Positions 10,614-47,008 of a stretch of DNA of 64,000 bases are shown one piece after another; the first letter of the stretch is position 1, and each line of letters opens with the position of its first letter. The notes under the pieces were generated by a model, which worked only from the letters and a program-made list of their open reading frames with translations, ran no database searches and was not told the DNA's origin. Position numbers and translations under genes: made by a program. Source of the DNA: Betaproteobacteria bacterium (GTDB lineage Bacteria > Pseudomonadota > Gammaproteobacteria > Burkholderiales > Rhodocyclaceae); NCBI GenBank assembly GCA_009777245.1, contig WRMF01000007.1:7037-71036 (forward strand), read 5' to 3'.

Positions 10614-10625
10614 GGGAGCAAAGCA

Positions 10626-20976: not shown

Positions 20977-21146
20977 GCGACAGAAGGGCTGAACGGCAAA
21001 AAAACCTTCGCCGTCACATTGGATAATCGAAGGTGTCAGGGGATTTTTGAGCATCCTGTTAAAGTGTGGCGCGGAAGGCATGATAAAGATACACTATCAA
21101 ACTCATGATGATTTCTCGTGTATCGTGTTGTTTTTTTCAGTCCATT

Positions 21147-22970: not shown

Positions 22971-22987
22971 TATATTGAGGAAATACG

Positions 22988-23248
22988 ATGTCTTCAACAA
23001 TGTCCAAAGAAGAAATTCTCGACTGGATAAAGAACGTCCTGCGCGAGCAATTTGAAATTCCCGCCGAGCACGTGGCATCAGACGCCAGGTTGTATCAGGA
23101 CCTCGATATTGACAGCATTGACGCCGTTGATCTGTTGATCAAGCTGAAACAACTGACGGGGCAGACGATCTCTCCAGAAGCGTTCAAGCAGGTGCGTACC
23201 GTAGGCGACGTGGTAGATGCAGTCCATGCCCATCTGCAAAACTCCTGA
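22988..23248 (+). CDS. Acyl carrier protein (second, divergent)
   Basis: 86 aa, with motif DLDIDSIDAVDLL. Confidence 0.9.
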   Translation: MSSTMSKEEILDWIKNVLREQFEIPAEHVASDARLYQDLDIDSIDAVDLLIKLKQLTGQTISPEAFKQVRTVGDVVDAVHAHLQNS

Positions 23249-25512: not shown

Positions 25513-25521
25513 TGATACCTA

Positions 25522-27932: not shown

Positions 27933-28870
27933 TGCACTGGGCAAAAATACAGGAAGCGGGCAGTTTGGCGGGGATGCGTTTTCTGCTCTCTGTCTACCGT
28001 ATTTTCGGGCGCTGGCCGTTTCGTTTTTTTCTGTTCTTCGTTCTCTTGTGGTTTTATGCGCGAAGGCGCGCTGCCCGCGAGGCGTCGCGCGATTATCTGC
28101 GACGACTGCGCGGCTTCAGCAATGGAGCTACGCCGCTGCCGACGCGGCTTAACGTCTTCCGGCATTTTCTGGCGTTTTCCGAAATCGCGCTTGACAAGCT
28201 CCTGGCTGTTGGCGCGGTCAATCCGCCGGAAGATTATCGTTTGGACGGACTCGAACACATTGACTCATTGCTCGCACAAAAGCGCGGGGCTGTTCTTGTC
28301 ACCGCGCATCTTGGCAATACCGACCTGTGCCGCAAGCTGGGGGAGCATTATGTCGACGCGCGCATAACGGTTTTAGCGCACACGAAAAATGCTGTCCGTT
28401 TCAACCGGCTGCTGAAAGAATGCAATTCCGAATACGACGTTGACCTGATTCAGGTGACTGATATTAATATCGGAACCGCCATTCTGCTGGCAGAGCGGGT
28501 CGAATCCGGCGGTTTGATCGTCATTGCCGGTGATCGCGTGCCGGTGGGCGATTCTGCGGCGACTGTGCGGGTTCCGTTCCTGGGGGCTGAGGCAAGTTTT
28601 CCGATCAGCCCCTATGTGCTTGCCGCTGCGCTGCAATGCCCGCTGCTTGCCATTTTCGGCGTTCGCCGCCTTGATGGCTTCGTCGTTATTCTGCGACCGA
28701 TTGCCGAATCGGTTTTGCTGCCGCGCCGCGCCAGAAGCGCGGCTGTCGTGCCATACGCCGCCGCTTTTGCCGAACTCCTGGAAGCGGAGTGCCTGAAAGC
28801 TCCTTTCCAATGGTCGAATTTTTACCAGTTCTGGGCGCTGCCGGAACCCGCCAATAAGGAGAGCAGCTAA
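27932..28870 (+). CDS. LpxL/HtrB-family (lipid A lauroyl-type) acyltransferase
   Basis: I chose MHWAKIQEAG as the start (ATG 27932, overlapping the upstream TGA). It has an N-terminal TM helix and an HX4D motif (TAHLGNTD). The length and profile fit LpxL-like proteins. Confidence 0.78.
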   Translation: MHWAKIQEAGSLAGMRFLLSVYRIFGRWPFRFFLFFVLLWFYARRRAAREASRDYLRRLRGFSNGATPLPTRLNVFRHFLAFSEIALDKLLAVGAVNPPEDYRLDGLEHIDSLLAQKRGAVLVTAHLGNTDLCRKLGEHYVDARITVLAHTKNAVRFNRLLKECNSEYDVDLIQVTDINIGTAILLAERVESGGLIVIAGDRVPVGDSAATVRVPFLGAEASFPISPYVLAAALQCPLLAIFGVRRLDGFVVILRPIAESVLLPRRARSAAVVPYAAAFAELLEAECLKAPFQWSNFYQFWALPEPANKESS

Positions 28871-29280
28871 TGCCGCTTACCGCTCGCATTGACTTGATCG
28901 TGCCGTTTCATGACCTTGACCCTATGGAAATATGCTGGCATGGCAACTATGTCCGCTATTTTGAACTGGCGCGTGTCGCGCTGTTGCAGCGGATAGATTA
29001 CGATTACCCGGAAATGCGCACTTCCGGTTACGCCTGGCCGGTGATCGAATTGTTCATTCGCTACGCGCATCCGCTGACATACCAACAACGCCTGCATATA
29101 GACGCCAGTCTTGTCGAATGGGAAAACCGGCTGAAAATCGCCTACGAAATTCGTGACGCGGCAAGCCAAAAACGGCTTACGCGCGGACATACTGTGCAGG
29201 TTGCCTTCGACATGCGGGCTAATGAAATGTGTTTTGTCAGCCCCGATGTTTTGCTCGAAAAATTGCAAGGTCATATATGA
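28870..29280 (+). CDS. 4HBT/YbgC-type acyl-CoA (acyl-ACP) thioesterase (ApeK-like)
   Basis: 136 aa, hot-dog thioesterase N-terminal pattern IVPFHDLDPMEICWHGNYVRYFELARV. Confidence 0.8.
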   Translation: MPLTARIDLIVPFHDLDPMEICWHGNYVRYFELARVALLQRIDYDYPEMRTSGYAWPVIELFIRYAHPLTYQQRLHIDASLVEWENRLKIAYEIRDAASQKRLTRGHTVQVAFDMRANEMCFVSPDVLLEKLQGHI

Positions 29281-29897
29281 TAATGAAACGAACATTCTTG
29301 CTGTCATGGTTCTGGCTTCTCCTTGCCGCTCCGGCGCTGGCTGCCGACCCGGCCTTGCTGGACGCTGTTCAATCCCGATTGACTGTTGACGCGGTAATTC
29401 GCGGCGAATTCACCCAGACCAGACAACTGGCAGGCATTAAAAAGCCGCTGGTGGCGACTGGCTCGTTCGTTGTTGAAAAAACAAGGGGGGTATTGTGGCG
29501 CGCATTGGCTCCTTTTCCGCAGACGACAAGAATCACCCAGGGCGAAATCCTGCAAAAGGATGGGGAACGTGTGCTGATGGCCTTGCGAGCCGACAGGGAA
29601 CCGGCGGTAAATTCCATCAGCCGCGTCTTGTTTTCGCTGTTCGCCAGTGACATGTCGGCATTGGCTGAATACTTCGATCACGAAGGTCAAACAGTCGGCG
29701 ATACCGGCTGGCAATTGTCTTTTACGCCGCGCGAGGCTGGCTTGAAGACCGTCATAGGTTCGCTGGTTCTGGAAGGCGACGATGTTGTCCGCAAGGTGAT
29801 ACTGACCGGCGCAGCAGGTGACATTACTGTTATTTCCTTCTCCAACATCGCTACTGCCGCCCTGCTGACCGCCGATGAACTCGCCCAATTCGAGTAA
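29277..29897 (+). CDS. LolA-like outer-membrane lipoprotein carrier family protein (ApeL-like)
   Basis: Signal peptide MIMKRTFLLSWFWLLLAAPALA. About 200 aa, LolA-fold size, in the conserved position before the MMPL exporter. Confidence 0.72.
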   Translation: MIMKRTFLLSWFWLLLAAPALAADPALLDAVQSRLTVDAVIRGEFTQTRQLAGIKKPLVATGSFVVEKTRGVLWRALAPFPQTTRITQGEILQKDGERVLMALRADREPAVNSISRVLFSLFASDMSALAEYFDHEGQTVGDTGWQLSFTPREAGLKTVIGSLVLEGDDVVRKVILTGAAGDITVISFSNIATAALLTADELAQFE

Positions 29898-32268
29898 CGA
29901 GCTGCGCTATGCCCGCTGCCATCGCGCGTTGGCCTGGGGTTGGCTCTGCGTTCTGGCATTGCTGGCCGCCATGCTCTTCGCGCATGTTCTACCCTGGCGC
30001 GGGCAGATAGATACCGACCTTCTGGCGCTGCTTCCCGTTGATGAGCGAAACCCGCATGCCGAAGCCGCGCTTAAAACCATGACGCAACGCGGCGAGCGGG
30101 AGTTGGCGTTGCTCCTGGTCGCGCCGGATGCCGCCACAGCGGAGCGAGCCGCCCATCGAGTCCGCGAAGTATTGCATGACGCGCCGCTGATAGCGCAAGC
30201 TCCCCAGGCGCAAATCGAGGCCATGCGCGACCTGTACTTCCCATATCGCGCCGGGTTCATTACCGAGCAGGACATGCGCTGGATTGCAGAAACCAATCAA
30301 GAGGCGCAGGCGGAGCGCGCCTTGTCGCTTGCTTATCAGTTATTTACCGGCAGCGCTTTGAACTGGCGCGATGATCCTTTCGGCTTTTTCGGCAACTGGA
30401 TGATGCGACTGGGAGAGGCCAGTCCGGCGCGACCCTATGGCGATATATTGATGGTACAGAAGGCGGATCGCCATTATGCGGTTTTGCTTTATCAATTGAC
30501 AGACAGCGCGTTTTCGTCAGATCTTCAGACGCGCCTTGCCGCTGATTTGCAGGCTGTCCGAAATGATCTGGCAGAGCGGTTTCCCGATGTGGAAATGCTG
30601 CGGGCGGGCGTCGTTCTCTTTGCGGCAGCGGCGGCGGAGCAGGCTCGTTTTGAAATGTCGCTGATCGGTAGCGGCGCGTTGCTTGGTTGCTTGTTGCTCG
30701 TCTGGGCGATTTTTCGCAATTTCAGGGCATTGCGCCTGATCCTGCTTTCGCTTGCCGCAGGCGCATTGGCGGGAGTGTCGTTGACATGGTTGATATTTGA
30801 CCGCATCCACGCGCTGACATTGGTGTTCGGCGCAAGTCTGATCGGGGTTGCCGTTGACTACGGCGTTCTGACGCTGGCGCAACATCTGGACGGCTCCGGC
30901 GCAAGGGAGCGTTGGCTTCGTTTCCGCCGTCTGTTGCCGCCATTGGCTCTGGTGCTGATTGCGCCTGCGCTGGCCTATCTCGGTTTGTTGCTTATGCCGT
31001 TTCCGGGGTTGCGGCAGATGGCTTGCTTTGCCGTTAGCGGCATCATAGGCGCATGGCTTACGGTCATGCTGTGGTATCCATATTTGCTGCCTTCGTCATT
31101 GCCGACAACGCCCCTTGCCGCACGCTTGATGCAAATGTTGCAACATTGGCCACGCTGGCGGGGAACTCCCGCGCAATGGCTCGTCGCCGCGTTGGCAGCC
31201 ATTGTCATCGGCGCGGGTATGCTGCAACTGAAAACGAATGATGATGTCCGTAGCCTCGTAAATACCGATCCTGAACTGCTGCGCGAACAGGTTGATGTTG
31301 CCGTAGCGCTTGAACTACCAAGCCCGGCGCAGCTTTTTTTGATTACCGCCGCTACTCCAGAAGAAGTGTTGCGGCATGAAGAGGCGTTATTGGCGAAGCT
31401 CTCGCCGTTCTTTGCCGACGGCAAATTGAGCGGATATGACGCAATCAGCCGTTGGCTGCCTTCAGAACAACGGCAACAGGAGGCGCGAGAGGCGCAGCGG
31501 AAATTGACCAATGCCCGCGCCATGCTGGCGGAAGAATTTGAACTTTCCGCCGATTGGGTCGCCGTATCGCATACAGCGTCATTGACGGCGGGTGAATGGC
31601 TGGAAAGTCCGGCGGCGGCTTCATTGCGTTATTTATGGCAGGGCGAGCGCGATGGGCGCTATTCGAGCATCGTTTTGCTGAAAGGATTGCGCGATGCGGA
31701 TACCGCGCGTCAATTAGCGACATTGAGCGGCGCCAATGTTCAATGGGTCGACAAGACCGCTGATGTCTCAATGTTGATGGGACACTACCGAACGTTGTTG
31801 TCGTCGGTGCTGATCGCCGCCTATCTGCTGGTTCCGCTGGTGTTGTTGCCGTTCTTCCGCCGCCGGACATGGCGGGTCATCATGCCTTCGTTGCTGGCGA
31901 CGTTGGGGACATTGGCGATAATGGGACATGTCGGCATTCCCTTGCAGCTTTTGAACGTGCTGACGCTCCTCCTGGTGTTCGGCATGGGCATTGACTACGG
32001 CCTGTTTCTGGTGGCGCAGAAGAGCGATGCCCGCGCCTTTCTCGCCATTTGCGTCGCCGCGTTGCTGACATTGGCGGCATTCGGCCTCTTGGCCGCAAGC
32101 AGCACTCCGGCGTTACGGACGATTGGACTGACCACCGCGCTTGGCATTGGTCTGGCATGGCTATTCACGCCGCTATTTCGCCTGCCGGAGCCGGAAGGGT
32201 CTATACTGTCCGACCTTGATACGCAGGCGAACAGATCGTCATATACTGAATTGAAAGCCACTGATTGA
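29875..32268 (+). CDS. MMPL/RND-superfamily exporter (ApeM-like)
   Basis: 797 aa. Two bundles of about 6 TM helices separated by soluble loops, with repeated GxGIDYG motifs (GVAVDYGVL, GMGIDYGLF). Confidence 0.85.
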   Translation: MNSPNSSNELRYARCHRALAWGWLCVLALLAAMLFAHVLPWRGQIDTDLLALLPVDERNPHAEAALKTMTQRGERELALLLVAPDAATAERAAHRVREVLHDAPLIAQAPQAQIEAMRDLYFPYRAGFITEQDMRWIAETNQEAQAERALSLAYQLFTGSALNWRDDPFGFFGNWMMRLGEASPARPYGDILMVQKADRHYAVLLYQLTDSAFSSDLQTRLAADLQAVRNDLAERFPDVEMLRAGVVLFAAAAAEQARFEMSLIGSGALLGCLLLVWAIFRNFRALRLILLSLAAGALAGVSLTWLIFDRIHALTLVFGASLIGVAVDYGVLTLAQHLDGSGARERWLRFRRLLPPLALVLIAPALAYLGLLLMPFPGLRQMACFAVSGIIGAWLTVMLWYPYLLPSSLPTTPLAARLMQMLQHWPRWRGTPAQWLVAALAAIVIGAGMLQLKTNDDVRSLVNTDPELLREQVDVAVALELPSPAQLFLITAATPEEVLRHEEALLAKLSPFFADGKLSGYDAISRWLPSEQRQQEAREAQRKLTNARAMLAEEFELSADWVAVSHTASLTAGEWLESPAAASLRYLWQGERDGRYSSIVLLKGLRDADTARQLATLSGANVQWVDKTADVSMLMGHYRTLLSSVLIAAYLLVPLVLLPFFRRRTWRVIMPSLLATLGTLAIMGHVGIPLQLLNVLTLLLVFGMGIDYGLFLVAQKSDARAFLAICVAALLTLAAFGLLAASSTPALRTIGLTTALGIGLAWLFTPLFRLPEPEGSILSDLDTQANRSSYTELKATD

Positions 32269-32277: not shown

Positions 32278-35200
32278 ATGCCGAGAATTTTCGACAATAT
32301 CAAAACATCTTTGTTGCCAGCTCTGCAAGAGACGCTCAAGGTTGCCGAGCGCGCGGATTTTTGCGTTGGATACTTCAATCTTCGCGGCTGGCGACACCTT
32401 TCTGATTATGTTGATAAGTGGGCAGGGGGCGACGGCCAATGTTGCCGATTGCTGGTTGGTATGCACGTTGCACCGAACGATGAACTCCGGCAAGCCCTTC
32501 GTACTTGTGCGAATGGCGACAGCCTGGATAACCAGACAGTGCACCGGGAAAAACGCCGCATTGCCGAGGGGTTTCGTCAACAACTGACTTTTGGCGCTCC
32601 GACCAATAAAGATGAGGCTGTGTTGCGCCAGCTTGCGGCGCAACTTCGCGCCAGAAAGTTGGTCGTCAAGGTCTATCTGCGTACTCCATTGCATGCCAAG
32701 CTATATTTGTCGTATAGGCAAGATGCCAATAATCCGGTGACTGGCTTTCTGGGCAGTTCAAACCTGACGCTTGCCGGTCTAGTCAAACAGGGCGAACTGA
32801 ATGTTGATGTGCTTGAACATGACGCCTGCAACAAGTTGGTGGATTGGTTTGAAGAACGCTGGAATGAGAATCCCCGCTTGTGTCTTGACATCTCGCAGGA
32901 ACTCGCTGAAATCATTGATGAGAGTTGGGCGGGAGATCGTCTTGTGCTGCCGTATCATGTCTATCTCAAGATGGCCTATCACTTGGCGCAGGAAGCGAGG
33001 GCTGGTCTCTCGGAGTTTCGTATTCCTTCGGTATTTGGGGACTCGCTTTTCGATTTTCAGGTCGCGGCGGTCAAGATTGCCGCGCACCACCTGAACAAAC
33101 GTGGGGGCGTACTGATCGGGGATGTGGTTGGTTTGGGCAAATCAATGATGGCTACTGCGCTGGCAAAGATATTCGAGGATGATTACAACACTGAAACACT
33201 CATTATCTGCCCCAGGAACCTGGTTCCGATGTGGGAAGACTATGTATATCGTTATCGCCTGCGCGCCAAGGTACTGTCACTGTCAAGGGTCATCAATGAG
33301 TTGCCGGAGAAAATGCCGCGCTACCGACTGGTCTTGATTGACGAATCGCACAATCTGCGCAATAAGGAGGGCAAACGCTGGAAAGTGATCCGTGAGTATA
33401 TCGAGCGCAATGAAAGTCTGACCATTCTGCTTTCAGCCACGCCCTACAACAAGACTCACCTTGATCTTTCGGCGCAACTTGCATTGTTCCTGAATGCAGA
33501 TACCGACATAGGCATTCGCCCGGAAAAACTGCTTGCCGAGTTGGGGGGAGAACATGAATTTATTCGTCGTCACCAATGCGGCGTGCGGTCGCTGGCGGCG
33601 TTTGAAAAGAGCGAATTTACCGATGATTGGCGCGATCTTATGCGTTTGTATATGGTGCGTCGCACGCGCGGCTTCATCATGCAACACTATTCCAGCGAAG
33701 ACGAGCGCGGTAAATATCTGTTGTTTTCGGATGGGCGCAAGTCCTATTTTCCGAAGCGTCTGCCCAAAAACCTGAGCTTTGAGATTGACGATACGAATCT
33801 GTCTGACCCTTATGCGCGGTTCTATAGCGATCATGTGGTCAATGCGATCAATGAGCTGATTTTGCCGCGTTATGGACTTGGCAATTACATTGCTCCCAAG
33901 CCGAAGGCTCCGCCAACACCTGGTCAGGCCAAAATAATTGAGGGACTCTCGCGTGCCGGTATGCGCCTGAAGGGCTTTTGCCGCACCAATCTCTTCAAGC
34001 GGCTGGAGAGCGCGGGACCGGCGTTTATCCTGTCCATTGAGCGCCATATTCTGCGTAATTTCATCGTATTGCATGCTTTGGAAAACGGTCTTGATATTCC
34101 GCTTGGCGCGCAAGGCTCGGAATTGCTGGACCCGCGCCATTACGACGAAGACCAGGACGGAGCGCTTGCCGATGATGAAGGCGATGAGGAGGCCGATACC
34201 ACCATCAGTAACGGGCTGCGAAGTGAGACAGACTATCGAGCGCAAGCCGCAAAGGCGTATGCCAAGTACAGAGGCGCGTTGAAAACCCGCTTCAAATGGC
34301 TGCCTGGCTCGCTTTTTGTCAATGCTCTGGCCAATGACTTGCTTGCCGACGCAACAGCCTTGCTGGACGTGCTGCGCGCCTGCGGTGAATGGTCGCCGGA
34401 TGCGGACAACAAGCTTGCTGCCTTGATCGAGCTTATCCAGAAAAAACACCCAAGGGAAAAACTCCTCGTTTTTACCCAGTTTGCGGATACCGCCCGTTAT
34501 TTAGGCGCACAGCTAGCCGCGCGTGGTGTCAAGCAGGTAGGAGAGGTCACCGGCCATAGCGTTGACCCTACCCAACTGGCCTGGCGTTTTTCGCCTGCAT
34601 CGAGCGGCAAGCGCGAAGAAATAAAAAAGACCGACGAATTACGAGTGCTTATTGCTACTGATGTGCTCTCCGAAGGGCAAAATCTGCAAGACGCGCATAT
34701 CATCGTCAACCATGACTTGCCCTGGGCCATCATTCGCCTGATTCAGCGCGCGGGGCGGGTGGATCGTATCGGTCAGCAGTCTGATGTCATTTTGTGTTAT
34801 TCCTTTGTTCCTGCTGATGGCGTTGAGCGTCTCATCAATCTGCGCGCCCGGGTCAAGCAACGCCTGATCCAGAATGCTGAAGTTGTAGGTTCTGACGAGA
34901 GCTTTTTTGATGACGACACGGAAGAAAAATTGATTCGTGATCTCTATACGGAGAAAAACGGCATTCTGGACGATGACGATACTGAGGTCGATCTGGCGTC
35001 TTATGCCTATCAAATCTGGAAAAACGCCACGGATGCCGATCCTTCGCTTGCCACCAGGATTGAAGCTATGCCCAACGTTGTTTTTGCCACCAAAGCGCAC
35101 GAACACAGTCCGATGTCGCCCAAGGGTGTGCTGGTGTATATGCGCACTGCCCAGGACAACGATGTGCTTTCCTGGATAGATGAAGCGGGCGAGCCGGTCA

Positions 35201-35658
35201 CACAATCGCAATTTACCATTTTGAAAGCTGCTGCCTGTGCGGCGGATACCCCTGCATTGCCACGTACCGAGCGCCACCACGAACTCACGCAGCAAGGCAT
35301 GAAATATATCGCCGAAGAAGAAAAATCCTTCGGCGGCGCGCTTGGTCGTCCATCCGGCGCGCGATTCAAAACCTACGAGCGCATCAAACGGTGGCGCGAG
35401 AGACAAGGCGACACGCGCGATCTATTCATTTCCGAAGAGCGTATGCGCCTGATTGACAAGGCGATGGAAGAAATCTACCGTTATCCTCTTTATCCGTCGG
35501 CTACTGATACGCTCAATCGGCAGATCAAGGCGGGCATCAACGATGACGACCTGCTGCGGCTCGTTCTTGCGCTGCGCGAGGATGACCGCCTTTGTTTGAT
35601 TGACGAACAGGAACAGCAGCGCGAGCCGAAGTTAATCTGTTCGCTGGGGCTGGCCTGA
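32278..35658 (+). CDS. HKD (phospholipase-D-type) nuclease domain fused to an SNF2-family helicase
   Basis: 1126 aa. Single HKD motif TPLHAKLYLSY...GFLGSSNLTLAG. SNF2 motifs GDVVGLGKS (I), LIDESHNLRN (II), LLSATPYN (III) and QRAGRVDRIGQ (VI). The C-terminal region of about 300 aa is unassigned. Confidence 0.9.
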   Translation: MPRIFDNIKTSLLPALQETLKVAERADFCVGYFNLRGWRHLSDYVDKWAGGDGQCCRLLVGMHVAPNDELRQALRTCANGDSLDNQTVHREKRRIAEGFRQQLTFGAPTNKDEAVLRQLAAQLRARKLVVKVYLRTPLHAKLYLSYRQDANNPVTGFLGSSNLTLAGLVKQGELNVDVLEHDACNKLVDWFEERWNENPRLCLDISQELAEIIDESWAGDRLVLPYHVYLKMAYHLAQEARAGLSEFRIPSVFGDSLFDFQVAAVKIAAHHLNKRGGVLIGDVVGLGKSMMATALAKIFEDDYNTETLIICPRNLVPMWEDYVYRYRLRAKVLSLSRVINELPEKMPRYRLVLIDESHNLRNKEGKRWKVIREYIERNESLTILLSATPYNKTHLDLSAQLALFLNADTDIGIRPEKLLAELGGEHEFIRRHQCGVRSLAAFEKSEFTDDWRDLMRLYMVRRTRGFIMQHYSSEDERGKYLLFSDGRKSYFPKRLPKNLSFEIDDTNLSDPYARFYSDHVVNAINELILPRYGLGNYIAPKPKAPPTPGQAKIIEGLSRAGMRLKGFCRTNLFKRLESAGPAFILSIERHILRNFIVLHALENGLDIPLGAQGSELLDPRHYDEDQDGALADDEGDEEADTTISNGLRSETDYRAQAAKAYAKYRGALKTRFKWLPGSLFVNALANDLLADATALLDVLRACGEWSPDADNKLAALIELIQKKHPREKLLVFTQFADTARYLGAQLAARGVKQVGEVTGHSVDPTQLAWRFSPASSGKREEIKKTDELRVLIATDVLSEGQNLQDAHIIVNHDLPWAIIRLIQRAGRVDRIGQQSDVILCYSFVPADGVERLINLRARVKQRLIQNAEVVGSDESFFDDDTEEKLIRDLYTEKNGILDDDDTEVDLASYAYQIWKNATDADPSLATRIEAMPNVVFATKAHEHSPMSPKGVLVYMRTAQDNDVLSWIDEAGEPVTQSQFTILKAAACAADTPALPRTERHHELTQQGMKYIAEEEKSFGGALGRPSGARFKTYERIKRWRERQGDTRDLFISEERMRLIDKAMEEIYRYPLYPSATDTLNRQIKAGINDDDLLRLVLALREDDRLCLIDEQEQQREPKLICSLGLA

Positions 35659-35674
35659 AACAGGAGAAAATCCT

Positions 35675-38600
35675 ATGCACCCCGAACAATTTCAGCAACT
35701 GCTTGACCAATTCGCGCTGGAGCAGCTTTTCAACGAGCTTGGCTGGGATAGCCCTGCCTTGAAGCAACTGTCAGAAGTCAAGGTAAATGGCGAGACTTTC
35801 AAGCTTGTCCAGATAGCGCACAAGCGCGGTGTTCAGGTGTTCCTTTGTTCGCCGGATAGGCGAGGCCGGATTCCGGAGCGTTCTGTATTGCTGCAAATAG
35901 AAAAAGAAGCCGCCAGGATCGCTTATGAGCATCTGCTGATATTCGCCGACACGGACAAAACCATGTTGACGTGGTTGTGGGTCTTGCGTGCGCCGGGGCA
36001 ACCGATGCGCGCCCGTACCCACACCTGGCGCAAGGGGCAAACGGGTGAATCGCTGCGGCAAAAGCTCATGCAAATCGTTTGGAAGATCGAAGAAGAAGAG
36101 GCCATTACGCTTAACGATGTAATCACAGGTATGGGCAGAGCCTTTGATCGTGATCGAGTTACCAGGAGTTTTTATGACAAATTCAAGGATCAGCACAAAG
36201 ACTTTGCTGAATTTATCGAGGGATTGAGCGTTGTCAGCGACAGGGACTGGTATGCCTCGCTGATGTTGAATCGCCTTATGTTTGTCTATTTCATCCAGAA
36301 AAAGGGCTTTCTTGATGGCGACGACAACTATCTAGTCAATCGCATGGCAGAGGTTCGGGATACTGTCGGCAAAGGCAGATTCCACAGCTTCTACCGCCTG
36401 TTCCTGTACCGTTTATTCCATGAGGGATTTGGGCAGCCCAGGGGCGACCGCGATCAGGAGTTGAATGGTTTAATTGGCGATGTGCCGTACCTGAACGGGG
36501 GGCTTTTTTCTCTGCATGAACTTGAAGAAGCTAACCCCGATATAGACATTCCCGACGAGGCTTTCGAGCAGCTGTTTAAATTTTTCGGTAAATGGGAATG
36601 GCATCTGGACGACCGTCCGCTGGCCTCTGGACGCGAGATCAACCCTGACGTGCTCGGCTATATATTTGAGAAGTTCATCAACCAGAAGCAGATGGGGGCG
36701 TACTACACCAAGGAAGACATTACCGGATACATCAGCAGGAACACGGTGGTTCCTCACTTGCTGGAGCAGGCGCAAAAACGTTGCAAGGTGGCATTTGAAG
36801 GCGAGACATCTGTATGGAATCTGCTAAGGGACGACCCTGATAGCTACATATATCCGGCTATGAAAACCGGCGTCATTGATGCGAATGGCAAAATTGTGCC
36901 GGAAGCGGCCTTGCCGGATTTTGTGCAGACCTGCATGAAAGACCCCAGGGCGCGGATGTTTGAGCGTCGTTACAATTTGGGCGAAGCCGTGTTCCATACC
37001 GCTACCGGCGAGCGCGGCACGCTGCCTACCGAAACCTGGCGGGAATATGCGGATCGCCGCCAGCGTTGTCTGGATATTCGAGAAAAGCTGACCAACGGCA
37101 AAGTAAAAAGCGCCGACGATCTTATTACCCTGAATCTGGACATCAGCCAATTTATGCAGGATGTGATTGATACCTGCACCAGTCCTGTTCTGCTACGCGC
37201 TGTCTGGCAGGCCATTGCCGGGCGTGTGCCGGAAAAGTCCAACGGAAAATTCCGCTACGGCATTGCCATTCTCGATCCCACTTGCGGTTCCGGGGCGTTT
37301 TTGTTCGCCGCGCTCAACATTCTGGAGCCGCTCTACGAAGCCTGCCTGGATCGCATGGAAGATTTTGTCGAGGACGCAAAAAAGCTCGGCAGAGCCGGGG
37401 AAGCTGATTTCGTCAAGCTGTTGGACGAAGTGAAGGAACACCCTTCGCGCCGCTATTACATTCTCAAAAATATCATCCTGCACAATCTGTTCGGCGTGGA
37501 CATCATGCCCGAGGCGGTGGAAATCTGCAAGCTGCGCCTGTTTTTGAAGCTGGTGTCCCAGGTGGATGCGGGGCGTGATCTGGAGCCATTGCCTGATATT
37601 GACTTCAACATCCGCGCAGGCAATACTCTGGTGGGTTACGCTACCAAAGCGCAGTTTGACGCATCGGGCGATCTGGCCAGCAATCAAGCCCACAAAGACC
37701 GCATCAGAGCCGACATTGCCGACCTTTCCGAATATTTCGACCGTTTCCGTGAGCAGCAGATTGTTTATGGCGGCAAGGTTACGGCGCAGGACAAACGTAA
37801 TTTGCGCGACAAGCTCAAAGGTTTGAGCGAGGAACTTGATCGCTATCTTGCCAACGACTACGGCATTGACCCGGAGAAAAAGAAAACCTTTGATGCCTGG
37901 CGCAAAAGCCATCAGCCTTTTCATTGGTTCGCAGAGTTCTACGGTGTTATGAGTAAGGGCGGCTTTGATGTGGTGATTGGAAATCCGCCGTATGTCGCCA
38001 GAAGCAGAGTTACAGGCTACACAGTACAAGGCTATGCCACGGCAAACTGCGCGGACATCTACGCTTGGTGTCAAGAGCGCGTTATCGCCATTGCTAACTC
38101 CAAAGCTCGCACCGGCATGATCGTTCCGCTCAGCCTGTCGTTCAGTAGTGATTTCGATGTGCTGCGCAAGCTGATCTATACGCAATATAGCGCCAACTGG
38201 TTCTCGCATTTCGCGCGCATTCCAGCCGCGCTGTTTGCCGCTGATGTACGCGTGCGCAATACCATTCACATCGGCAAAATCGGCAGCGGCAACACACCAA
38301 GCCAGCAATACACATCGCGCCTGCACCGCTGGTTTGAAGTGGCACGCCCTTATCTCTTTGCCACGTTGTCTTACGCCAGCTTCACTCCAGAACGGTGGAA
38401 GCGCCGTATCCCCAAACTCAACACACAAGCGCTAATTTCTACTTTTGAACAGCTACTAGCGCCTAGCAACCGCCATACGGTTAAGTGCTGCTTGAGTCGC
38501 AGCGTCACGCCGCACCGCCTGCATTTCAAGAAGACTGCCTACAACTGGCTGTCCTTTACGCACGAAGAAGCGCCGTGCTTCGATGCACGCGGCAAGCGTG

Positions 38601-39028
38601 TGCCGCAAACGCAATATGATGATATCAGCTTTACTAGTACCGAAGAGCGCGAATTGCTATTCCACCTGCTCAACGGCAAACTCCAGTTTATCTTCTGGCT
38701 TGCTATTGGCGACGACTTTCACGTTACCAAATGGACTTTCAACGAATTACCGTTGCATCCGGTCAAGTTGTCGGCAGAGCATAAGCAGCAACTTAAAAAG
38801 CTGACTCCCGCGTTAAAAACGGCAGTGGAAAAAGCCGTACAATACAAGCTCAACGCAGGCAAGCGCGTAGGCAACTACAACCTGTCCAAATGTCGCCACA
38901 TCACCGACCAGGCAGACCACATCTATGCACAGGCTTTTGGTATGACTCATGTATGGGATGACATCGAATTACTCTACAGGCAAACGGTTAAGACTGACTT
39001 TGAAGATAATGGAGACGACGAAGCATGA
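35675..39028 (+). CDS. Eco57I-family gamma-class N6-adenine DNA methyltransferase with putative target-recognition region
   Basis: 1117 aa. Motif I ILDPTCGSGAFLFAA and motif IV VIGNPPYV. Helical pre-MTase region NRLMFVYFIQKKGFL...INPDVLGYIFEKFINQKQMGAYYT. A GGAG SD lies 9 nt upstream. Confidence 0.9.
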   Translation: MHPEQFQQLLDQFALEQLFNELGWDSPALKQLSEVKVNGETFKLVQIAHKRGVQVFLCSPDRRGRIPERSVLLQIEKEAARIAYEHLLIFADTDKTMLTWLWVLRAPGQPMRARTHTWRKGQTGESLRQKLMQIVWKIEEEEAITLNDVITGMGRAFDRDRVTRSFYDKFKDQHKDFAEFIEGLSVVSDRDWYASLMLNRLMFVYFIQKKGFLDGDDNYLVNRMAEVRDTVGKGRFHSFYRLFLYRLFHEGFGQPRGDRDQELNGLIGDVPYLNGGLFSLHELEEANPDIDIPDEAFEQLFKFFGKWEWHLDDRPLASGREINPDVLGYIFEKFINQKQMGAYYTKEDITGYISRNTVVPHLLEQAQKRCKVAFEGETSVWNLLRDDPDSYIYPAMKTGVIDANGKIVPEAALPDFVQTCMKDPRARMFERRYNLGEAVFHTATGERGTLPTETWREYADRRQRCLDIREKLTNGKVKSADDLITLNLDISQFMQDVIDTCTSPVLLRAVWQAIAGRVPEKSNGKFRYGIAILDPTCGSGAFLFAALNILEPLYEACLDRMEDFVEDAKKLGRAGEADFVKLLDEVKEHPSRRYYILKNIILHNLFGVDIMPEAVEICKLRLFLKLVSQVDAGRDLEPLPDIDFNIRAGNTLVGYATKAQFDASGDLASNQAHKDRIRADIADLSEYFDRFREQQIVYGGKVTAQDKRNLRDKLKGLSEELDRYLANDYGIDPEKKKTFDAWRKSHQPFHWFAEFYGVMSKGGFDVVIGNPPYVARSRVTGYTVQGYATANCADIYAWCQERVIAIANSKARTGMIVPLSLSFSSDFDVLRKLIYTQYSANWFSHFARIPAALFAADVRVRNTIHIGKIGSGNTPSQQYTSRLHRWFEVARPYLFATLSYASFTPERWKRRIPKLNTQALISTFEQLLAPSNRHTVKCCLSRSVTPHRLHFKKTAYNWLSFTHEEAPCFDARGKRVPQTQYDDISFTSTEERELLFHLLNGKLQFIFWLAIGDDFHVTKWTFNELPLHPVKLSAEHKQQLKKLTPALKTAVEKAVQYKLNAGKRVGNYNLSKCRHITDQADHIYAQAFGMTHVWDDIELLYRQTVKTDFEDNGDDEA

Positions 39029-39522
39029 AACCCTTGCCCATCGCCTTGCCGCCTCAATGCGCCCGGCGGATAGAGCCTGAAATTGCCGAGCGAATCGTCG
39101 GCGTCGGCAATGCGGATTTACTTGAAACACACTTGCTTGGTTTCGTCGCTTCACGCGAATGCCCCGGTCATGTCCTGCTCGAAATTCTCGACCGCATACC
39201 GGAATGGGTAGAAGCCAACCGCGTCATCATCAGCGGTTTTCACTCGCCGCTGGAACAACAGGTGTTGCGCTCGACGCTACGCCGCAACGGGCGCGTGGTC
39301 AAGGCGCTGGCGCGGAGCATGAGCGACTACCGACCAACCGCCGAAGAGCGCGAACCACTGGCGGATGGCAGGATGCTGGTCATTACCGCCTGCCTGCCGA
39401 AAGTGCGCCGCGTCACCCGCGAAACCGCGCTGGCGCGCAACCGCCTGGTATTGGCTCTGGCAACGGAGATTGTCGCGCCCTATCTCTCCGCCAGCAGCCC
39501 GCTTGCCGACATGTTGATTTAG
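39025..39522 (+). CDS. Stand-alone DprA/Smf-like Rossmann (SLOG) domain protein
   Basis: 165 aa. By-eye alignment to the DprA core: LGFVASRECPG (vs IGSR), VIISGFHSPLEQ (vs SGxAxGID), ALARNRLVLALATEIVAP (vs ARNRiIaaLsd.vvV). ATGA overlap with the MTase stop. Confidence 0.7.
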   Translation: MKPLPIALPPQCARRIEPEIAERIVGVGNADLLETHLLGFVASRECPGHVLLEILDRIPEWVEANRVIISGFHSPLEQQVLRSTLRRNGRVVKALARSMSDYRPTAEEREPLADGRMLVITACLPKVRRVTRETALARNRLVLALATEIVAPYLSASSPLADMLI

Positions 39523-39717
39523 AGGCGTACACCCCAAGCTATCCAGAATGGCTGAATCGCTGCCATGATCATCTATCCGCCCGAAAAGCATTCATGATGA
39601 AATGCGAAAATCATTGCATTGCGTGCTGCGAACGCCGCGAACGCGAATGTCTGAAAATTTGCTATCCTGTTATTTCTTCATGGAGTATGCGGTTTATTTT
39701 CACAGGCAAAGGACAAC

Positions 39718-42700
39718 ATGAGCGGCATTACCGATTTCATTGGACGCTGGAAGGTTTCCGGCGGTTCAGAGCAGGCAAACTCGCAGTCATTCCTCAAGGA
39801 ATTGTGCGATGTTCTGGATTTGCAGCAGCCAGACCCCGCCGATCCTGTCAATGAAAAGAACGCCTATGTCTTTGAGCGCAAGGTTTATGTCACACGCGGC
39901 GACGGCACGAAAGAACTCAAAAAGCTCGATCTGTATTACAAGGGTCGTTTTGTGCTGGAGTCCAAACAAGGGCAGGACGCCGTAGGGGCGAAAAGTTTTT
40001 CGTCCCTGCTATCCGGGGGGATGACCGCGTCAAGCGCAGTCAAGCGGGGAACGCGCCAGTGGGAGGATTCCATGCAGCGCGCCAAGCGGCAGGCGGAAAA
40101 CTACATCCGCAGCCTGCCTGCCTCTGAAGGTCGCCCGCCCTTTCTCATCGTCACAGATGTGGGCTACTGCTTTGACCTCTACACGGAATTTACCTGCACC
40201 GGCGGCCTGTACCTGCATTTTCCCGATACCAGGACTTACCGCGTCATGCTGGATGATTTGGCAAGGCCGGAAGTTCGCGCTTTGTTTCAGGCTATCTGGA
40301 AAGACCCGCTTTCCCTTGACCCGTCCAGACGGTCGGCCAAAGTAACCGAGGAAATAGCCGACCATTTGGCGCTGCTTGCGCGTTTGCTGGAAAAGGACGG
40401 GCATGAGCCGGAGCAGGTCTCGCAATTTCTCATGCGTTGTATTTTTTCGATGTTTGCCGAGGATATGAGCCTTATTCCGGCAGGCAGCTTTACGGATATT
40501 ATCCAGAAATCCATTTTGCAACCGGGCGGATACAAGCATTACTTAAATGATTTATGGAATGCCATGAACAAGGGCGAGTTTTCCGTGCTTCTGGACAAAC
40601 AACTGCTGCGCTTCAACGGTCACATTTTTTACGACCCGGAAGTATTGCCGCTGGAGCGTGAGCATCTGGGCATTCTCCTTGAAGCCGCGAAAGCCGACTG
40701 GCGGGAAGTGGAGCCGGCCATTTTCGGGACATTGCTGGAACACGCACTGAATCCGAAAGAGCGGCACAAGCTGGGGGCGCATTACACGCCTCGCGCCTAT
40801 GTGGAACGTCTGGTCATCCCCACGGTCATGCAGCCATTACGGAAGGAATGGGATGATGTGCAGACCACGGCAAGCGTCTTGTTCAATCAGGGCAAGGAAA
40901 AGGAAGCGTGCAAGACCGTTGCCGGATTTCACGAACGGCTACGCGGCATTCGAGTTCTTGACCCGGCCTGCGGCTCCGGCAATTTCCTCTATGTCACGAT
41001 GGAGCACATGAAGCGGCTCGAAGGCGAAGTGCTGCAAGCTCTCGCAAGCTACGGCGAGCGGCAGGCAAGCCTGTTGCAGATTGACCCGCACCAGTTTCTG
41101 GGGTTGGAAATCAACCCCCGCGCCGCGCATATTGCGGAAATGGTGTTGTGGATCGGTTTTTTGCAATGGCATTTCAGGACGTGCGGCAATGTGAACCCGC
41201 CAGAGCCGGTAATTCGGCAATTCGACAACATCCAGCACAAGGACGCGCTGATTGCCTATAAAGGCTGGAAATACGCCACGGATGAGGACGGCAAGCCGAT
41301 AACCCGCTGGGATGGCGAGACTTACAAGACCGATCCCGCAACCGGACGGCAAATGCCGGATGAAAAGGCCGTTGTCGTGGATGAAGTCTATGAGGGCGTG
41401 AAGGCGGCAGAATGGCCGGAAGCTGATTTTATTGTGGGCAATCCGCCGTTTATTGGCGGTTGGATGAAGCGCAGCGTTTTGGGACATGGCATGTTTGACG
41501 CGCTGACGAAGACTTACGCGCGACTTCCTGAATCCTGCGATTTTGTCATGTACTGGTGGCACAAGGCTGCGGATTTGGTACGCGCGGGCAAGGTCAAACG
41601 CTTTGGCTTCATCACTACCAACAGCATTACCCATGTCTTTAACCGCCGCGTGGTTTCCCTGCATCTGGGAGACAAAAAACCGCTGCGCCTCGTCTTTGCC
41701 GTGTCGGATCATCCCTGGGTGGAAGCCTCTGACAGCGCGGCGGTGCGTATTGCCATGACTGTCGGGGAGAAGGGCAAAGGCGAAGGCGTGCTCGCCACTG
41801 TTGTGGAAGAACGCGAGACAGGCGACAAGGAAATAGCTGTAACCATGACTGAGCAAAATGGCGTCATCCACGCGAATTTGCGCCAGGGAACCGATGTGAC
41901 AAAAGCTGAATCATTGGCAGCTAATGATGAACTCTGCTGCCCGGGGGTAAAACTACATGGTTCAGGTTTCATTGTTACCCCGATGCAGGCGGCTTCTCTG
42001 GGATTGGGGCATATTTCAGGATTGGAGCGGCATATCCGACTCTACAGAAACGGACGGGACATAGCTAATGGTCTGCGCGGCGTAATGGTTATTGACTTGT
42101 TCGGGCTTACGGCGAAAGAAGTACGCCATAAATACCCGGAGGTTTACCAGTGGGTATATACGCGAGTAAAGCCAGAACGGGACGCTAATAACAGGAACAG
42201 CTACCGCGAGAATTGGTGGGTATTTGGAGAACCACGGAAAGAATTTCGTCCGGCTCTGGCAGGTTTGCCTCGTTATATTTCCACAATTGAAACTGCCAAG
42301 CACAGATTTTTTTTATTTTTGCCTGCTGAGGTGTTGCCGGATAATAGACTGGTGAACATAGCTAGCGCAGATGCCTACCATCTTGGAGTGTTGTCCAGCA
42401 ACATTCATGTGCGTTGGGCGATGGCAGCAGGAGGCACATTAGGGCCTGGTCGGGTATACACCAAATCCCGTTGCTTTGATACTTACCCATTCCCCGATGC
42501 CAACCCCGAACAACAAGCCCGCATCCGCGATTTGGGCGAACAACTGGATGCTCACCGGAAGAAACGGCAGAGCCTTCATCCTGACCTCACGATGACCGAT
42601 ATGTATAACGTGCTGGAAGCCTTGCGTCAGAGCCGGATGCTTACGGATCGGGAAAGAAACATCCATGAACAAGGACTTGTGTCTGTGTTGCGTAATTTGC

Positions 42701-43137
42701 ATGATGAACTGGATGCCGCCGTATTCGATGCTTACGGCTGGTCTGCCAATCTCACAGACGAAGAAATCCTCTCCCGCCTTGTCGCCCTGAACGCCGAGCG
42801 CGCGGAAGAAGAAAAGAACGGACAAATCCGCTGGCTGCGTCCGGAATACCAGAGCAAATCCAGGGCGGAGCGCAGCAAAATGGTTCAGGATGCGCTTGCC
42901 CTGGATTCCCGGCCGGAACCTGCCGCCAGGGGCAAAAAAGGCGCCAAGACCGCGCCCAAGTCTGCCTGGCCTTCCGATCAGCTGGAACAAACCCAGGCCG
43001 TGCGCGACGCGATAAATACCCTGCGGGAAACCGCCATAGCCATCACGCCGGAGACTGTGGCAAAACGCTTCACCCGCCCCAACAACGACAGAGTGAAGGA
43101 AATTCTACGGGCGTTGGAAACGCTGGGGTTTGTGTAG
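39718..43137 (+). CDS. MmeI-family type IIL/IIG restriction-modification enzyme (nuclease + N6-adenine MTase + TRD)
   Basis: 1139 aa. N-terminal D-X9-E-X-K motif ([15 protein letters not shown]), MTase motif [15 protein letters not shown] and motif [11 protein letters not shown], with a long C-terminal region. Confidence 0.82.
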
Positions 43138-43576: not shown

Positions 43577-46024
43577 CTAAGCGGCATCATCCCGCAGGAT
43601 TTTTTCCGGCGGCAGATATTTGAGCAGCACATCCTGCAAGTGAGAGATGATAATGGGCTTGGAGAGAAAATCGTTCATCCCTGCCTCGATGAAAGCCGCG
43701 CGCGCGTCAATAACGGCATTGGCAGTCAGCGCGACAATGATGGAATACTTGTGCCTGCCGCCCAGGGCGCGGATGGCTTTAGTGGCTTTCAGGCCGTCAA
43801 TTTCCGGCATCATGTGATCCATGAAGATGATGTCGTATTCCTTGGCGCTCGCCATTTCAATGCCTGCCCGTCCTCCGTCGGCCTGTTCGACCTCTATGCC
43901 GTACTGCTCCAACAATCCGGCTGCCACCACCAGATTGATCTGATTGTCATCAATAACCAATACCCGCGCATTAAGAGTCTTGAATGCCTTGTCCTTTGCG
44001 CCCTGATCCCGGATGATGCTCGGCTCGTGCCTGGGACGATCATTCAAAAGGCTGACCAGACTTGTGATGATGAGCGGTCTTTCCAACGTTTCGCCGATGC
44101 CGCTGTTGTTCTTATCGCCGCTCCACAACAGAACGATTGTTTTTACGTATGCCGGAATGATTCGAGCCGCGCTTTTGGCCAACGCAAGATCAATGATGGC
44201 ATGGCTGTAGTCGCTTTTTGCAAAGGCGTTTATCGCCTCTTCATGAGTCTTTATCATGGTATGGGGCAACTCCAGGGAAGTCAGCATTTCAGCCAGCGCC
44301 TCCGCGTTGCAAGTCAGCGGCTCGTAACAGAGAATGTGGGTGATTTGCTCCGGTTTCTCAACGCGAGCGACAGGGACAATTGCATTGTCTTCCTCCTTAT
44401 ATCCGCAGAAGATATGCCATGAGAAAGTAGAGCCTTTGCCATAAATACTTTGCGCGCCAATCTCTCCGCCCATCATTTCAACCAGCCGACGGGTAATTGC
44501 AAGGCCGAGGCCTGTTCCCAACACATTCCGGTTCCTTTGGGTATCCAATCGCTGAAAGTCGCTGAAAAGTTTGCCCATATCCGCTTCGCGGATACCAACC
44601 CCGGTATCGCGCACCGAGAAACAAAGTTTCAGCGTCCTGATTTCCTGATCATCATCAGACATTGATTGTCCGACAACTTTTTTATCCGGCGCGGCCTCCT
44701 CGCTCCAGACCCTAAGGTTGATATTACCCTCCCGCGTATATTTGACCGCATTGTTCAGGATGTTGGTAAGAGTCTGCCGAATACGGAGAGCGTCGCCAAT
44801 CAGGGTAAACGGAATGACGGGTGAAACAACGACAGTCAATGCCACCTTGGAATTGCCGGTTCGCATCCCGATCATGGTAACTGTGTCGTAGATAAATGAG
44901 GCAAAATCGAAAGGTCGGCAGTCAATTTCCATCTTCCGCGCCTCAATTTTGGAAAAATCCAGAATGTCGTTGATAATGCCAAGGAGCGCCATGGCGGAAT
45001 TGCGGACAGTTATCGCGCGCGCGGTCTGAGCGGGATCAAGCGGGTTGGCAAGCATCAATTCTGTCATTCCGATGATGGCATTCATTGGAGTGCGAATCTC
45101 GTGGCTGACCAAAGCCAGGAACTGGCTTTTTGCCATGGTCGCCCGTTCCGCTTCTTCCTTGGCTTTCATGATCGGGCTGATGTCTATCCATTCAAAGGAG
45201 CGGGCAATGCTCTCTTCCGCCATGGGCGAGGAACGAAGCGAAAACCAGTGTTTTTTCCCCTGCACGATCGCGGAAAACTCCTGTTCCACAAAACCGCTTT
45301 GCTCCATGATTTCCTGAAATACCCTTTTCAGATCATCGTCCGGAAAAAGGTCAAGCACAGGCCTTGACTGCCTGTGGAGACGGCGTGGAATTCCCAGCCA
45401 GCTGGCAAGCGATGCGCTGATATAACTTGAGGCAGCCTTGCTGTCGCTAATCAAAGTATAGTTAGGCGTAGTATTCATGATGGCTTCAAAAGTCTGGCTG
45501 TTTTTCTCCAGAATAAAAATCCGCTTTTGAATGACGATGAGCGATCCATAAAGAAGCAGGCAGAAAACATCAAAAATAAGCAACCAGGAAAAATACTGGA
45601 GACCGTCACTATCAGGCGATTGTCGCGCTATCATCGCCAACATGACCAATAGCAACAGATTAACCAATGAGAGAAAAATCCAGAAACTCTTTTTGTCAAG
45701 ATAGGTAAAATTAATAAAAGCCGCGCCAATGGGAACCAACGCATAAACGGCATAATCCTTGCTTTCAAACATCATGAAAGCATAAATAAGCACGACTAAA
45801 AACGGATTCAACCATGCCTGGGTAGAAACCGGGAAGTAAATCCATGTGGTGCGCAGTAGCGCCACCGCAATCAGACCGGAAACGAGTTGCCAGAGTTCCA
45901 TCTGGCTTATCGTCATGAAGAGCGCGTAAATCGCAACCAGAATGACTGCAAAACGTTGCCGTGAACGGTCAAACAACTGTTCTTGCTTCAAGTCAAAAGC
46001 GTAGCGCGTAGCTTCTTGTTTCAT
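43577..46024 (-). CDS. Hybrid sensor histidine kinase / response regulator
   Basis: 815 aa. Multi-TM N-terminus, PAS-like region, H-box [21 protein letters not shown], HATPase G-boxes ([24 protein letters not shown]), a degenerate receiver-like linker, and a C-terminal REC domain ([11 protein letters not shown]...[13 protein letters not shown]...SKP). Confidence 0.9.
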
Positions 46025-47001: not shown

Positions 47002-47008
47002 GTTTTTC

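Follow-up and report, generated by a model that had tools for sequence, protein, structure and literature searches.

The question raised by the locus described here is whether three closely packed genes form one restriction system of their own, belong to a known system, or are mere neighbours. The genes lie at 32278-39522 of a 64-kb stretch of contig WRMF01000007.1 (this whole stretch is called the window, and coordinates without further label are positions in it). They encode an HKD phospholipase D (PLD)-type nuclease fused to an SNF2-type ATPase (ORF1), an Eco57I-type adenine methylase (ORF2) and a DprA-like protein (ORF3). An earlier note on this DNA had read the trio as an ATP-dependent, methylation-discriminating, restriction-like system that fits no named system. 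The checks that were run support this reading of a function that is itself predicted. Neither PADLOC nor NCBIfam returned a named multi-gene system for the trio, no NCBIfam model reached its cut-off, and only ORF2 taken alone received a label, 'REase_MTase_IIG'. A literature search for the exact trio or for a PLD/HKD-SNF2 pair found no description, and only papers on BREX-related systems and MANTIS surfaced. The trio looks like a widespread ATP-dependent restriction-modification variant which has neither a name nor an experimental description. Since each building block and the overall logic are already known, the system is not categorically new.

ORF1 and ORF2 family genes are linked across phyla

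According to the ORF listing, ORF1 (32278-35658, 1126 aa), ORF2 (35675-39028, 1117 aa) and ORF3 (39025-39522, 165 aa) are all on the + strand. The tight packing described in the earlier note was found again at the same positions: ORF1 and ORF2 are separated by a 16-nt spacer (35659-35674, + strand, aacAGGAGaaaatcct) that holds an AGGAG ribosome-binding site for ORF2, while ORF2 and ORF3 share a 4-nt ATGA overlap (39025-39028). As judged from this overlap, ORF3 is translationally coupled to ORF2. The same 4-nt overlap is also present in relatives.

Of about 185,000 species-representative genomes, at least 586, from many phyla, were found to carry a member of the ORF1 family. Proteins with 75-83% identity to ORF1 make up more than 100 clusters from Beta- and Gammaproteobacteria, and proteins at least 59% identical occur in Cyanobacteria, Chloroflexota, Acidobacteriota, Latescibacterota, Nitrospirota, Planctomycetota, Bacillota and others. 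Gene linkage was counted on the best 80 ORF1-family loci, 72 of them with at least 1.5 kb of flank for scoring ORF2 and 51 with at least 7 kb for scoring ORF3. An ORF2-family gene was located directly downstream of the ORF1-family gene and on the same strand in 69 of the 72 loci, which come from proteobacteria, cyanobacteria, Chloroflexota, Acidobacteriota, Latescibacterota and others; in Pelobacter and in Rhodococcus plasmids the two genes overlap or abut. ORF1 and ORF2 are a near-obligate pair. A DprA-like gene of the ORF3 family accompanied the pair in 34 of 51 loci, in every case on the same strand and at the end of the operon, 33 times downstream and once immediately upstream of ORF1, and the upstream 10-kb control flanks had no DprA-like match other than this adjacent case. 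In the plasmid copies from cyanobacteria and actinobacteria the pair stands without a DprA-like gene, and no further conserved gene cluster was found across the 80 loci. The system is a two-gene core with a frequent accessory third gene. The same gene order across unrelated phyla bears out the co-occurrence which the earlier note had proposed to check, and its view of the DprA-like protein as the unusual third subunit stands in so far as the gene is recurrent; it is a frequent accessory and not a universal component.

The system behaves as a mobile island. Its distribution is patchy and horizontal, and copies are found on plasmids, including those of Synechocystis PCC 6803 and Nostoc punctiforme. 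Viral contigs gave just 9 matches, so the system is not mainly phage-borne. Within the proteobacterial clades the identity levels run in parallel, being about 75-83% for ORF1, 60-77% for ORF2 and 71-77% for ORF3.

ORF1 is a predicted motor nuclease

ORF1 begins with an HKD PLD-type nuclease domain (about aa 1-210), which is followed by an SNF2-type superfamily 2 (SF2) ATPase (about aa 240-890); the C-terminal region (about aa 890-1126) is conserved. Pfam models PLDc_2, RE_NgoFVII, SNF2-rel_dom and Helicase_C each scored over cut-off; with ResIII, no stretch passed the threshold by itself. The PADLOC model 'HKD+Snf2' C3a139 matched ORF1 with E=3e-46. This is a generic model that may come from a list of CRISPR-associated accessory clusters. 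A search of PDB sequences gave just generic SNF2 and DEAD-box matches and no match to SauUSI.

The catalytic motifs reported in the earlier note were all read in the translation, and Pfam bears out the domains. The HKD motif HAKLYLSYRQDANNPVTGFLGSSN (HAKLYL...GSSN, aa 139-162; 32692-32763, + strand), located by a regular expression on the translation, is single, and no second HxK occurs anywhere in the protein. The SF2 motif I (GLGKS, aa 285-289) and motif II (DESH, aa 355-358) span 33130-33351 (+ strand), the SAT motif is at aa 386, and motif VI (QRAGRVDRIGQ, aa 823-833) is at 34744-34776 (+ strand). Residues H139, K141, G159, S160, S161 and N162 are invariant in the ORF1 family (20 homologues), as are Walker A, DExH and motif VI across the family alignment, and the catalytic residues are kept in the copies of Synechocystis, Pelobacter and Rhodococcus. 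No domain for reading a DNA sequence, recognising a target or reading a modified base was recognisable in ORF1 by Pfam.

In Nuc and BfiI, two HKD half-sites build one active centre in a dimer. SauUSI and MtsD likewise build one active centre from two HKD half-sites in a dimer, and MtsD is a dimer with one PLD site (bioRxiv 10.64898/2026.09.23.753747). Since each ORF1 chain has one HKD motif, a dimer would by analogy with these four enzymes be needed to form one active site. We propose that ORF1 is a Res-like restriction subunit.

The ATPase core of ORF1 also resembles RapA and chromatin remodellers, and some relatives are annotated as 'RNA polymerase-associated protein'. Together with the Synechocystis methylase gene slr6050 (a homologue of ORF2, see below), which was published as 'essential', this would fit a pair that is no defence system at all but an epigenetic or chromatin-type regulator, made up of an orphan methylase and a RapA-like SNF2 remodeller. 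We find such a role scarcely credible, because the HKD nuclease motif is invariant, the recognition module of the methylase is swapped, the distribution is patchy and horizontal with plasmid copies, and the locus is in a defence islet with toxin/Abi cargo.

ORF2 is an adenine methylase with an exchanged C-terminal module

The N-terminal part of ORF2 (aa 1-330) is an alpha/beta and helical region. A gamma-class N6-adenine methyltransferase occupies about aa 330-850, and a target-recognition region makes up the C-terminus. The two methyltransferase motifs named in the earlier note are present: motif I for AdoMet binding (DPTCGSGAFL, aa 534; 37274-37303, + strand) is invariant in the alignment, and so are N770, P771 and P772 of the catalytic motif IV (NPPY, aa 770; 37982-37993, + strand). 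The Pfam model Eco57I matched with 87 bits (1.7e-24).

The C-terminal location of a target-recognition domain is likewise supported. Between ORF2 homologues the identity is 70-75% over aa 1-850 and falls to about 20% over aa 851-1117, which identifies aa 851-1117 (38225-39025, + strand) as an exchanged specificity module and a putative target-recognition domain. This is the least conserved region of ORF2 across phyla, and it was predicted by AlphaFold2 (AF2) with a local confidence score (pLDDT) of 80-93. The fold search with the ORF2 model returned CamA, M.TaqI, M.BseCI, BREX PglX and BpuSI, matches that support the class of methylase with recognition domain and nothing narrower; a PDB sequence search with ORF2 gave no match. 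We propose that ORF2 is the Mod-like specificity and methylation subunit.

A different assignment has to be weighed here. ORF2 could be a self-contained type IIG enzyme and ORF1 a separate stand-alone nuclease, for example a SauUSI-like type IV enzyme, with the two as mere neighbours. The PADLOC model REase_MTase_IIG PDLC03628 covers ORF2 over its full length with E=2.6e-249, the type IIG enzyme BpuSI is among the fold matches, and PLD-SF2 enzymes such as SauUSI act alone. The N-terminal ~130 residues of ORF2 form a confident alpha/beta domain in the AF2 model, of which aa 1-105 are compact and, in our own reading of the model and not as a search result, could suit a restriction-endonuclease-like fold. 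Type IIG and type IIL enzymes (Eco57I, MmeI, BpuSI) and BREX PglX do share with ORF2 the gamma-class Eco57I-type core and the C-terminal recognition domain. However, conserved PD-(D/E)xK residues were not found in ORF2: in its N-terminus (aa 1-130) the D...(D/E)xK triad is not conserved among 40 homologues across phyla, and the candidate nuclease positions differ in the Synechocystis homologue. Pfam detected no MmeI_N-like nuclease in ORF2, and the profile comparison with a neighbouring MmeI-type protein aligned motif I only. ORF2 also differs from the type IIG/IIL enzymes in having a separate motor-nuclease partner, the adjacency in 69 of 72 loci being an operon-like coupling, and this partner contains no target-recognition or modified-base reader domain recognisable by Pfam. 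A self-contained ORF2 is therefore distinctly improbable in our view, and the homologue in Synechocystis adds a further argument.

The methylase slr6050 of Synechocystis and its HKD-SNF2 neighbour

Plasmid pSYSX of Synechocystis PCC 6803 (locus L081, record positions 43696-51129) carries in this order an HKD-SNF2 gene, a small ORF, a VapC toxin gene and slr6050. The HKD-SNF2 protein is intact and 51% identical to ORF1, and slr6050 is 40% identical to ORF2 over the full length. Hagemann et al. described slr6050 as M.Ssp6803IV with the motif GAm6AGGC (PMC6105098). Because the complementary strand of GAAGGC has no adenine, this methylation must be hemimethylation. The slr6050 mutant could not be fully segregated and the gene was called 'essential', and the HKD-SNF2 gene beside it goes unmentioned (PMC6105098). 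Deletion of a bifunctional type IIG gene would remove both activities at once, so such a gene should be deletable, which slr6050 was not; its undeletability fits a separate and active cognate nuclease in trans. Self-restriction would explain the failed deletion.

Relation to described defence systems

The earlier note had compared the trio with class 1 DISARM (DrmA, DrmB, DrmC, DrmD, DrmMI). This comparison holds for the domain types, since a PLD nuclease, an SNF2 helicase and an N6-adenine methylase are all present in DISARM, but among characterised proteins ORF1 has its closest analogues in MtsD of MANTIS/Gao_RL and in SauUSI, and not in DrmC plus DrmD. In the trio PLD and SNF2 are fused, and the defining DrmA (YprA-type helicase) and DrmB (DUF1998) are absent from the window, as the earlier note had stated.

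MANTIS (formerly Gao_RL or 'Type-2 BREX-related', MtsA-D) resembles the trio in that MtsD has an N-terminal single-HKD PLD domain fused to an SF2 helicase-like ATPase (bioRxiv 10.64898/2026.09.23.753747), and that MtsD works downstream of an adenine methyltransferase by which short asymmetric sites are hemimethylated (bioRxiv 10.64898/2026.09.23.753747; PMC12839542). MANTIS differs in that it needs a DUF499 AAA+ ATPase (MtsA), a DUF3780 protein (MtsB) and a DUF1156-type methylase, none of which was found in the window or in the related loci. It also has no DprA-like gene, and ORF1 matches the MANTIS models over the helicase C-lobe only (124 bits for 'phospholipD_antiphage', whose cut-off is 1100).

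Such a set of genes could in principle be what is left of a class 1 DISARM in degenerate or minimal form, or of a BREX-related locus (MANTIS/Gao_RL, Hma, ARMADA II), after loss of the other genes. In favour of this origin, in PADLOC ORF1 matches DrmD (2.4e-32) and ORF2 matches DrmMI (9.5e-23), the BrxHI/II and PglX models match too, DISARM_DrmD and 'phospholipD_antiphage' of NCBIfam give partial matches, and the same three domain types occur in DISARM. These matches are partial and far under cut-off, with DISARM_DrmD reaching 119 bits against 610 and covering only the C-lobe of ORF1; for ORF2 the DrmMI value compares with 2.6e-249 for the type IIG model, and the PglX models of NCBIfam gave at most 68 bits against cut-offs of at least 400. 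No DrmA, DUF1998, DUF499, DUF3780, DUF1156, PglZ or BrxC gene was found among the large ORFs of the window by Pfam, and PglZ and BrxC are absent from the related loci as well. No other gene cluster is conserved in the 80 loci, and the two-gene core is itself conserved across phyla, hence it is no remnant. We regard decay from such a system as very improbable.

The inferred logic of the trio is that of type III (EcoP15I) and type ISP (LlaGI/LlaBIII) enzymes: an asymmetric site would be hemimethylated, an SF2 ATPase-nuclease would link distant unmodified sites, and the methylase-recognition unit would set the specificity of both reactions. The parts differ. The nuclease is PLD and the motor SNF2 in the trio, against a PD-(D/E)xK or Mrr-type nuclease and Rad25/RecG-like or type I-like motors in the type III and type ISP enzymes. 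Type ISP enzymes carry nuclease, ATPase, methylase and recognition domain on one chain, which are distributed here over two polypeptides. In the type III Mod the methylase is of the beta class and the recognition domain is internal; ORF2 is of the gamma class, with motif I before NPPY and the variable module at the C-terminus. SauUSI, a type IV enzyme, is ATP-dependent and has a PLD-family nuclease with an SF2 helicase-like motor as ORF1 does, but it targets methylated DNA by its own recognition domain and has no methylase. CglI and NgoAVII reportedly are ATP-dependent and combine a PLD-family nuclease with an SF2 helicase-like motor as well. They differ in having a C5 methylase and an R protein with a B3 domain.

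Annotators split the parts of the system into a 'helicase-related protein', an 'Eco57I methylase' or 'type IIG' enzyme, and 'DprA'. If they were recognised as one system, many type IIG calls would be corrected and the undeletability of slr6050 would be explained. The pair would also provide a minimal two-protein model, free of an AAA+ loader, of how a methylase licenses a PLD-SF2 motor nuclease; this licensing question is still open for MANTIS, where the MtsD activity has not been reconstituted.

ORF3 is a shortened DprA-like protein

The earlier note had described ORF3 as a 165-aa DprA-type Rossmann domain. The Pfam model DNA_processg_A matched it over cut-off (36.2 bits against 29.6; 4.6e-9), the PADLOC models PsyrA and ShosA gave 8.5e-17 and 2.5e-4, and a profile of 27 ORF3-family members aligned with the Rossmann domain of S. 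pneumoniae DprA (3uqz) over 175 positions. As a refinement, ORF3 belongs to a short clade and holds only the DprA Rossmann-fold (SLOG) core, with no SAM domain and no winged-helix domain. It thereby differs from the canonical DprA of natural transformation, and the dprA equivalog TIGR00732 scored 27 bits against a cut-off of 191. Members of this clade, which numbers more than 100 clusters, are shortened C-terminally to 165-176 aa, whereas about 210 aa are usual in other phyla; two elements of the long form, its last beta-alpha unit and its glycine-rich loop of the PGGKTE type, are missing from the short clade. At E<=1e-10 the family comprises about 611 clusters (50% identity), and nearly every member listed stands alone as a protein of 165-260 aa. 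No fusion of the DprA-like domain to a helicase or a methylase was found in the best 150 of 1621 representative matches, among which there is a single fusion to an IS200 transposase. An AF2 model of ORF3 was also made; it was built from 28 close homologues, reached a pLDDT of 54, and its fold search gave noise (best E=0.11), so the identity of ORF3 rests on sequence-profile evidence.

The methylase gene and the DprA-like gene are 18 to about 5000 nt apart, and the gap is filled with changing cargo, namely AAA_21, DUF1016/YhcG, VapC/PIN, PDDEXK_3, Schlafen-AlbA_2/HATPase_c_4 and AAA_14/DUF4143 genes. This type of cargo insertion resembles that of type I restriction-modification operons, in which unrelated genes have settled among the conserved subunit genes. 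Because the terminal place of the DprA-like gene persists across variable inserts, ORF3 is better explained as a component than as a passenger.

A converse test was performed on 80 metagenome loci anchored on the long-form DprA-like protein, with the scan run from six closer sequences. Most loci with at least 4 kb upstream carried an ORF2-family methylase, and the HKD-SNF2 gene was present where the contig was long enough. The exceptions had cargo genes or, in two loci (L104 and L128), a different N6 methylase.

Three precedents indicate what such a protein may do. ShosA binds single-stranded DNA, this binding is required to neutralise toxicity, and a role in recombinational repair was proposed (PMC11961720). 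DprA of H. pylori inhibits restriction enzymes and stimulates methyltransferases (PMC3597690). The partner of PsyrA is a helicase toxin, the RecQ-like PsyrT.

A model for restriction by the trio

We think it likely that the core acts as an ATP-dependent restriction-modification system, in which the PLD-SNF2 protein is Res-like and the methylase is Mod-like. The C-terminal module of ORF2 would read a short asymmetric DNA site, and its gamma-class NPPY methyltransferase would mark one adenine of the site on host DNA, leading to hemimethylation. On an unmethylated site ORF2 would recruit or license an ORF1 dimer, a step for which ORF1 would depend on ORF2 because it has no sequence-reading domain of its own. 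Two ORF1 chains, each with a single HKD half-site, would then form one nuclease centre of the PLD type, the SNF2 motors would spend ATP in tracking along double-stranded DNA and so link distant unmodified sites, and the DNA would be cut in the manner proposed for type III, type ISP, SauUSI and MANTIS MtsD. In hemimethylating type III and type ISP systems, and apparently in MANTIS, freshly replicated host DNA is spared by orientation-specific site communication (bioRxiv 10.64898/2026.09.23.753747), and we infer that orientation-dependent communication between sites would spare replicated host DNA here too.

ORF3 would restrain the motor nuclease or repair its self-damage; to this end it could coat host DNA that is single-stranded or nicked, and promote methylation or repair through RecA. 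This self-protecting or modulating role is suggested by the precedents of ShosA (single-stranded DNA binding), PsyrA (partner of a helicase toxin) and H. pylori DprA. It is the least secure step of the overall model, and we put it forward tentatively, at somewhat below an even chance. If the trio is one system, ORF3 would give the first case in which a restriction system has taken on a DprA-fold protein as its dedicated accessory.

A further-reaching proposal, about which we are doubtful, makes the DprA-like subunit a built-in recombination mediator or single-strand sensor of the restriction system. As a mediator, it could load RecA or stimulate methylation at single-stranded gaps or forks with transiently unmethylated sites and thereby check the motor nuclease; if true, this would be a solution to the autoimmunity problem common to all hemimethylating systems. 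As a sensor, it could direct the system to DNA that enters single-stranded, by conjugation, transformation or single-stranded DNA phage. If the mediator or sensor proposal were true, a class of REBASE-style 'type IIG' methylases would be Mod subunits of an overlooked two- or three-component PLD-SNF2 restriction type.

Several observations weigh against the model. The AF2 model of ORF2 is patchy overall (pLDDT 63) with a poorly predicted methylase core. The fold search took the ORF2 model as a whole, and a cryptic nuclease in the N-terminus keeps a small probability. The motif GAm6AGGC was assigned to slr6050 by elimination and REBASE, not by direct proof (PMC6105098). The ATG of ORF1 lies 9 nt past the stop codon of an exporter gene, so the operon is without an obvious promoter of its own; none was detected in the promoter and terminator scan, which gave fewer matches than shuffles and was uninformative. 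The shortening of the ORF3 clade may alter DNA binding. The ORF3 gene is missing in about one third of the loci, and its link to the mechanism may for this reason be loose. Finally, a long-form DprA-like gene occurs in L104 (stretch 5125-10615) downstream of an HSDR_N_2+N6_Mtase gene with a Methylase_S subunit, and in L128 (stretch 3533-5870) downstream of a 392-aa N6_Mtase gene; because it is also found behind such other N6-adenine methylases, the DprA-like accessory may serve more than one kind of restriction-modification system.

The last two points would also suit an ORF3 that hitch-hikes and tends to lodge at the ends of restriction-modification operons, such as the antitoxin half left when a PsyrTA/ShosTA-type module decays. 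Such operons gather cargo genes, PsyrTA is known from within a BREX operon, and the plasmid copies do without ORF3. ORF3 does match the PsyrA and ShosA models and shares the DprA Rossmann fold with these systems, but in contrast to them it has no partner: neither a PsyrT (RecQ) nor a ShosT (PRTase) gene adjoins it in the window or in the related loci. Its strand and terminal place are constant in 33 loci despite the variable inserts, the 4-nt overlap with ORF2 is found here and in relatives, the ORF3 subfamily mostly accompanies an ORF2-family methylase, and the identity levels of the proteobacterial ORF1, ORF2 and ORF3 clades are parallel. We consider a hitch-hiker unlikely, and prefer ORF3 as an accessory component of the restriction-modification system.

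Genomic setting and additional genes

The window is chromosomal, with metG, dnaE, nth, ilvBHC, acnB, an aryl-polyene cluster, uvrD and several two-component systems identified by Pfam on large ORFs. The locus is inserted between the aryl-polyene cluster on one side and a sensor kinase on the other, and the GC content goes from about 0.58 down to 0.52 across 32-39 kb. A repeat search over 31.5-44.2 kb found neither flanking direct repeats nor invertible recognition-domain cassettes. The aryl-polyene-type biosynthetic cluster (21105-32268, + strand) contains genes for ketoacyl synthase, acyltransferases, two AMP-binding/ApeI-dehydratase proteins, a glycosyltransferase, a thioesterase and a LolA-like protein, and ends with an MMPL/RND exporter gene at 29875-32268.

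A complete MmeI-family type IIG/IIL enzyme of 1139 aa (39718-43137, + strand) is encoded 196 nt past ORF3. It has the Pfam domains MmeI_N, MmeI_hel, MmeI_Mtase and MmeI_TRD and matches PADLOC PDLC03627 with E=0. This gene (ORF4) was found in none of the 80 related loci and is for that reason a second, independent system within the islet. It is followed by a hybrid sensor kinase gene in convergent orientation, and 32278-43137 is, from its predicted gene content, a small defence islet. A 231-aa ORF in another frame (39159-39854, + strand) extends over the 3' half of ORF3 and into the start of the MmeI-type gene, and is probably a non-coding shadow ORF.

Several additional genes were observed in related loci. 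A 65-aa HTH_17 (AlpA/MerR-like) gene is located about 50-250 nt upstream of the HKD-SNF2 gene in L174-L176, L037, L056, L070 and L072 and may encode a controller protein; it is absent from the window. A 276-aa gene coupled to the DprA-like gene is specific to L174-L176. Between the methylase gene and the DprA-like gene of L060 and L076 (also L029, L048 and L049) there is a recurrent gene pair with no Pfam match, which encodes proteins of about 210 aa and then about 1000-1280 aa (clusters C21 and C7). On plasmid pNPUN01 of Nostoc punctiforme (L163, 14078-18103), the HKD-SNF2 gene is followed by a gene for a 1341-aa 'RNA-binding domain-containing protein', possibly a methylase with an additional domain fused at its N-terminus.

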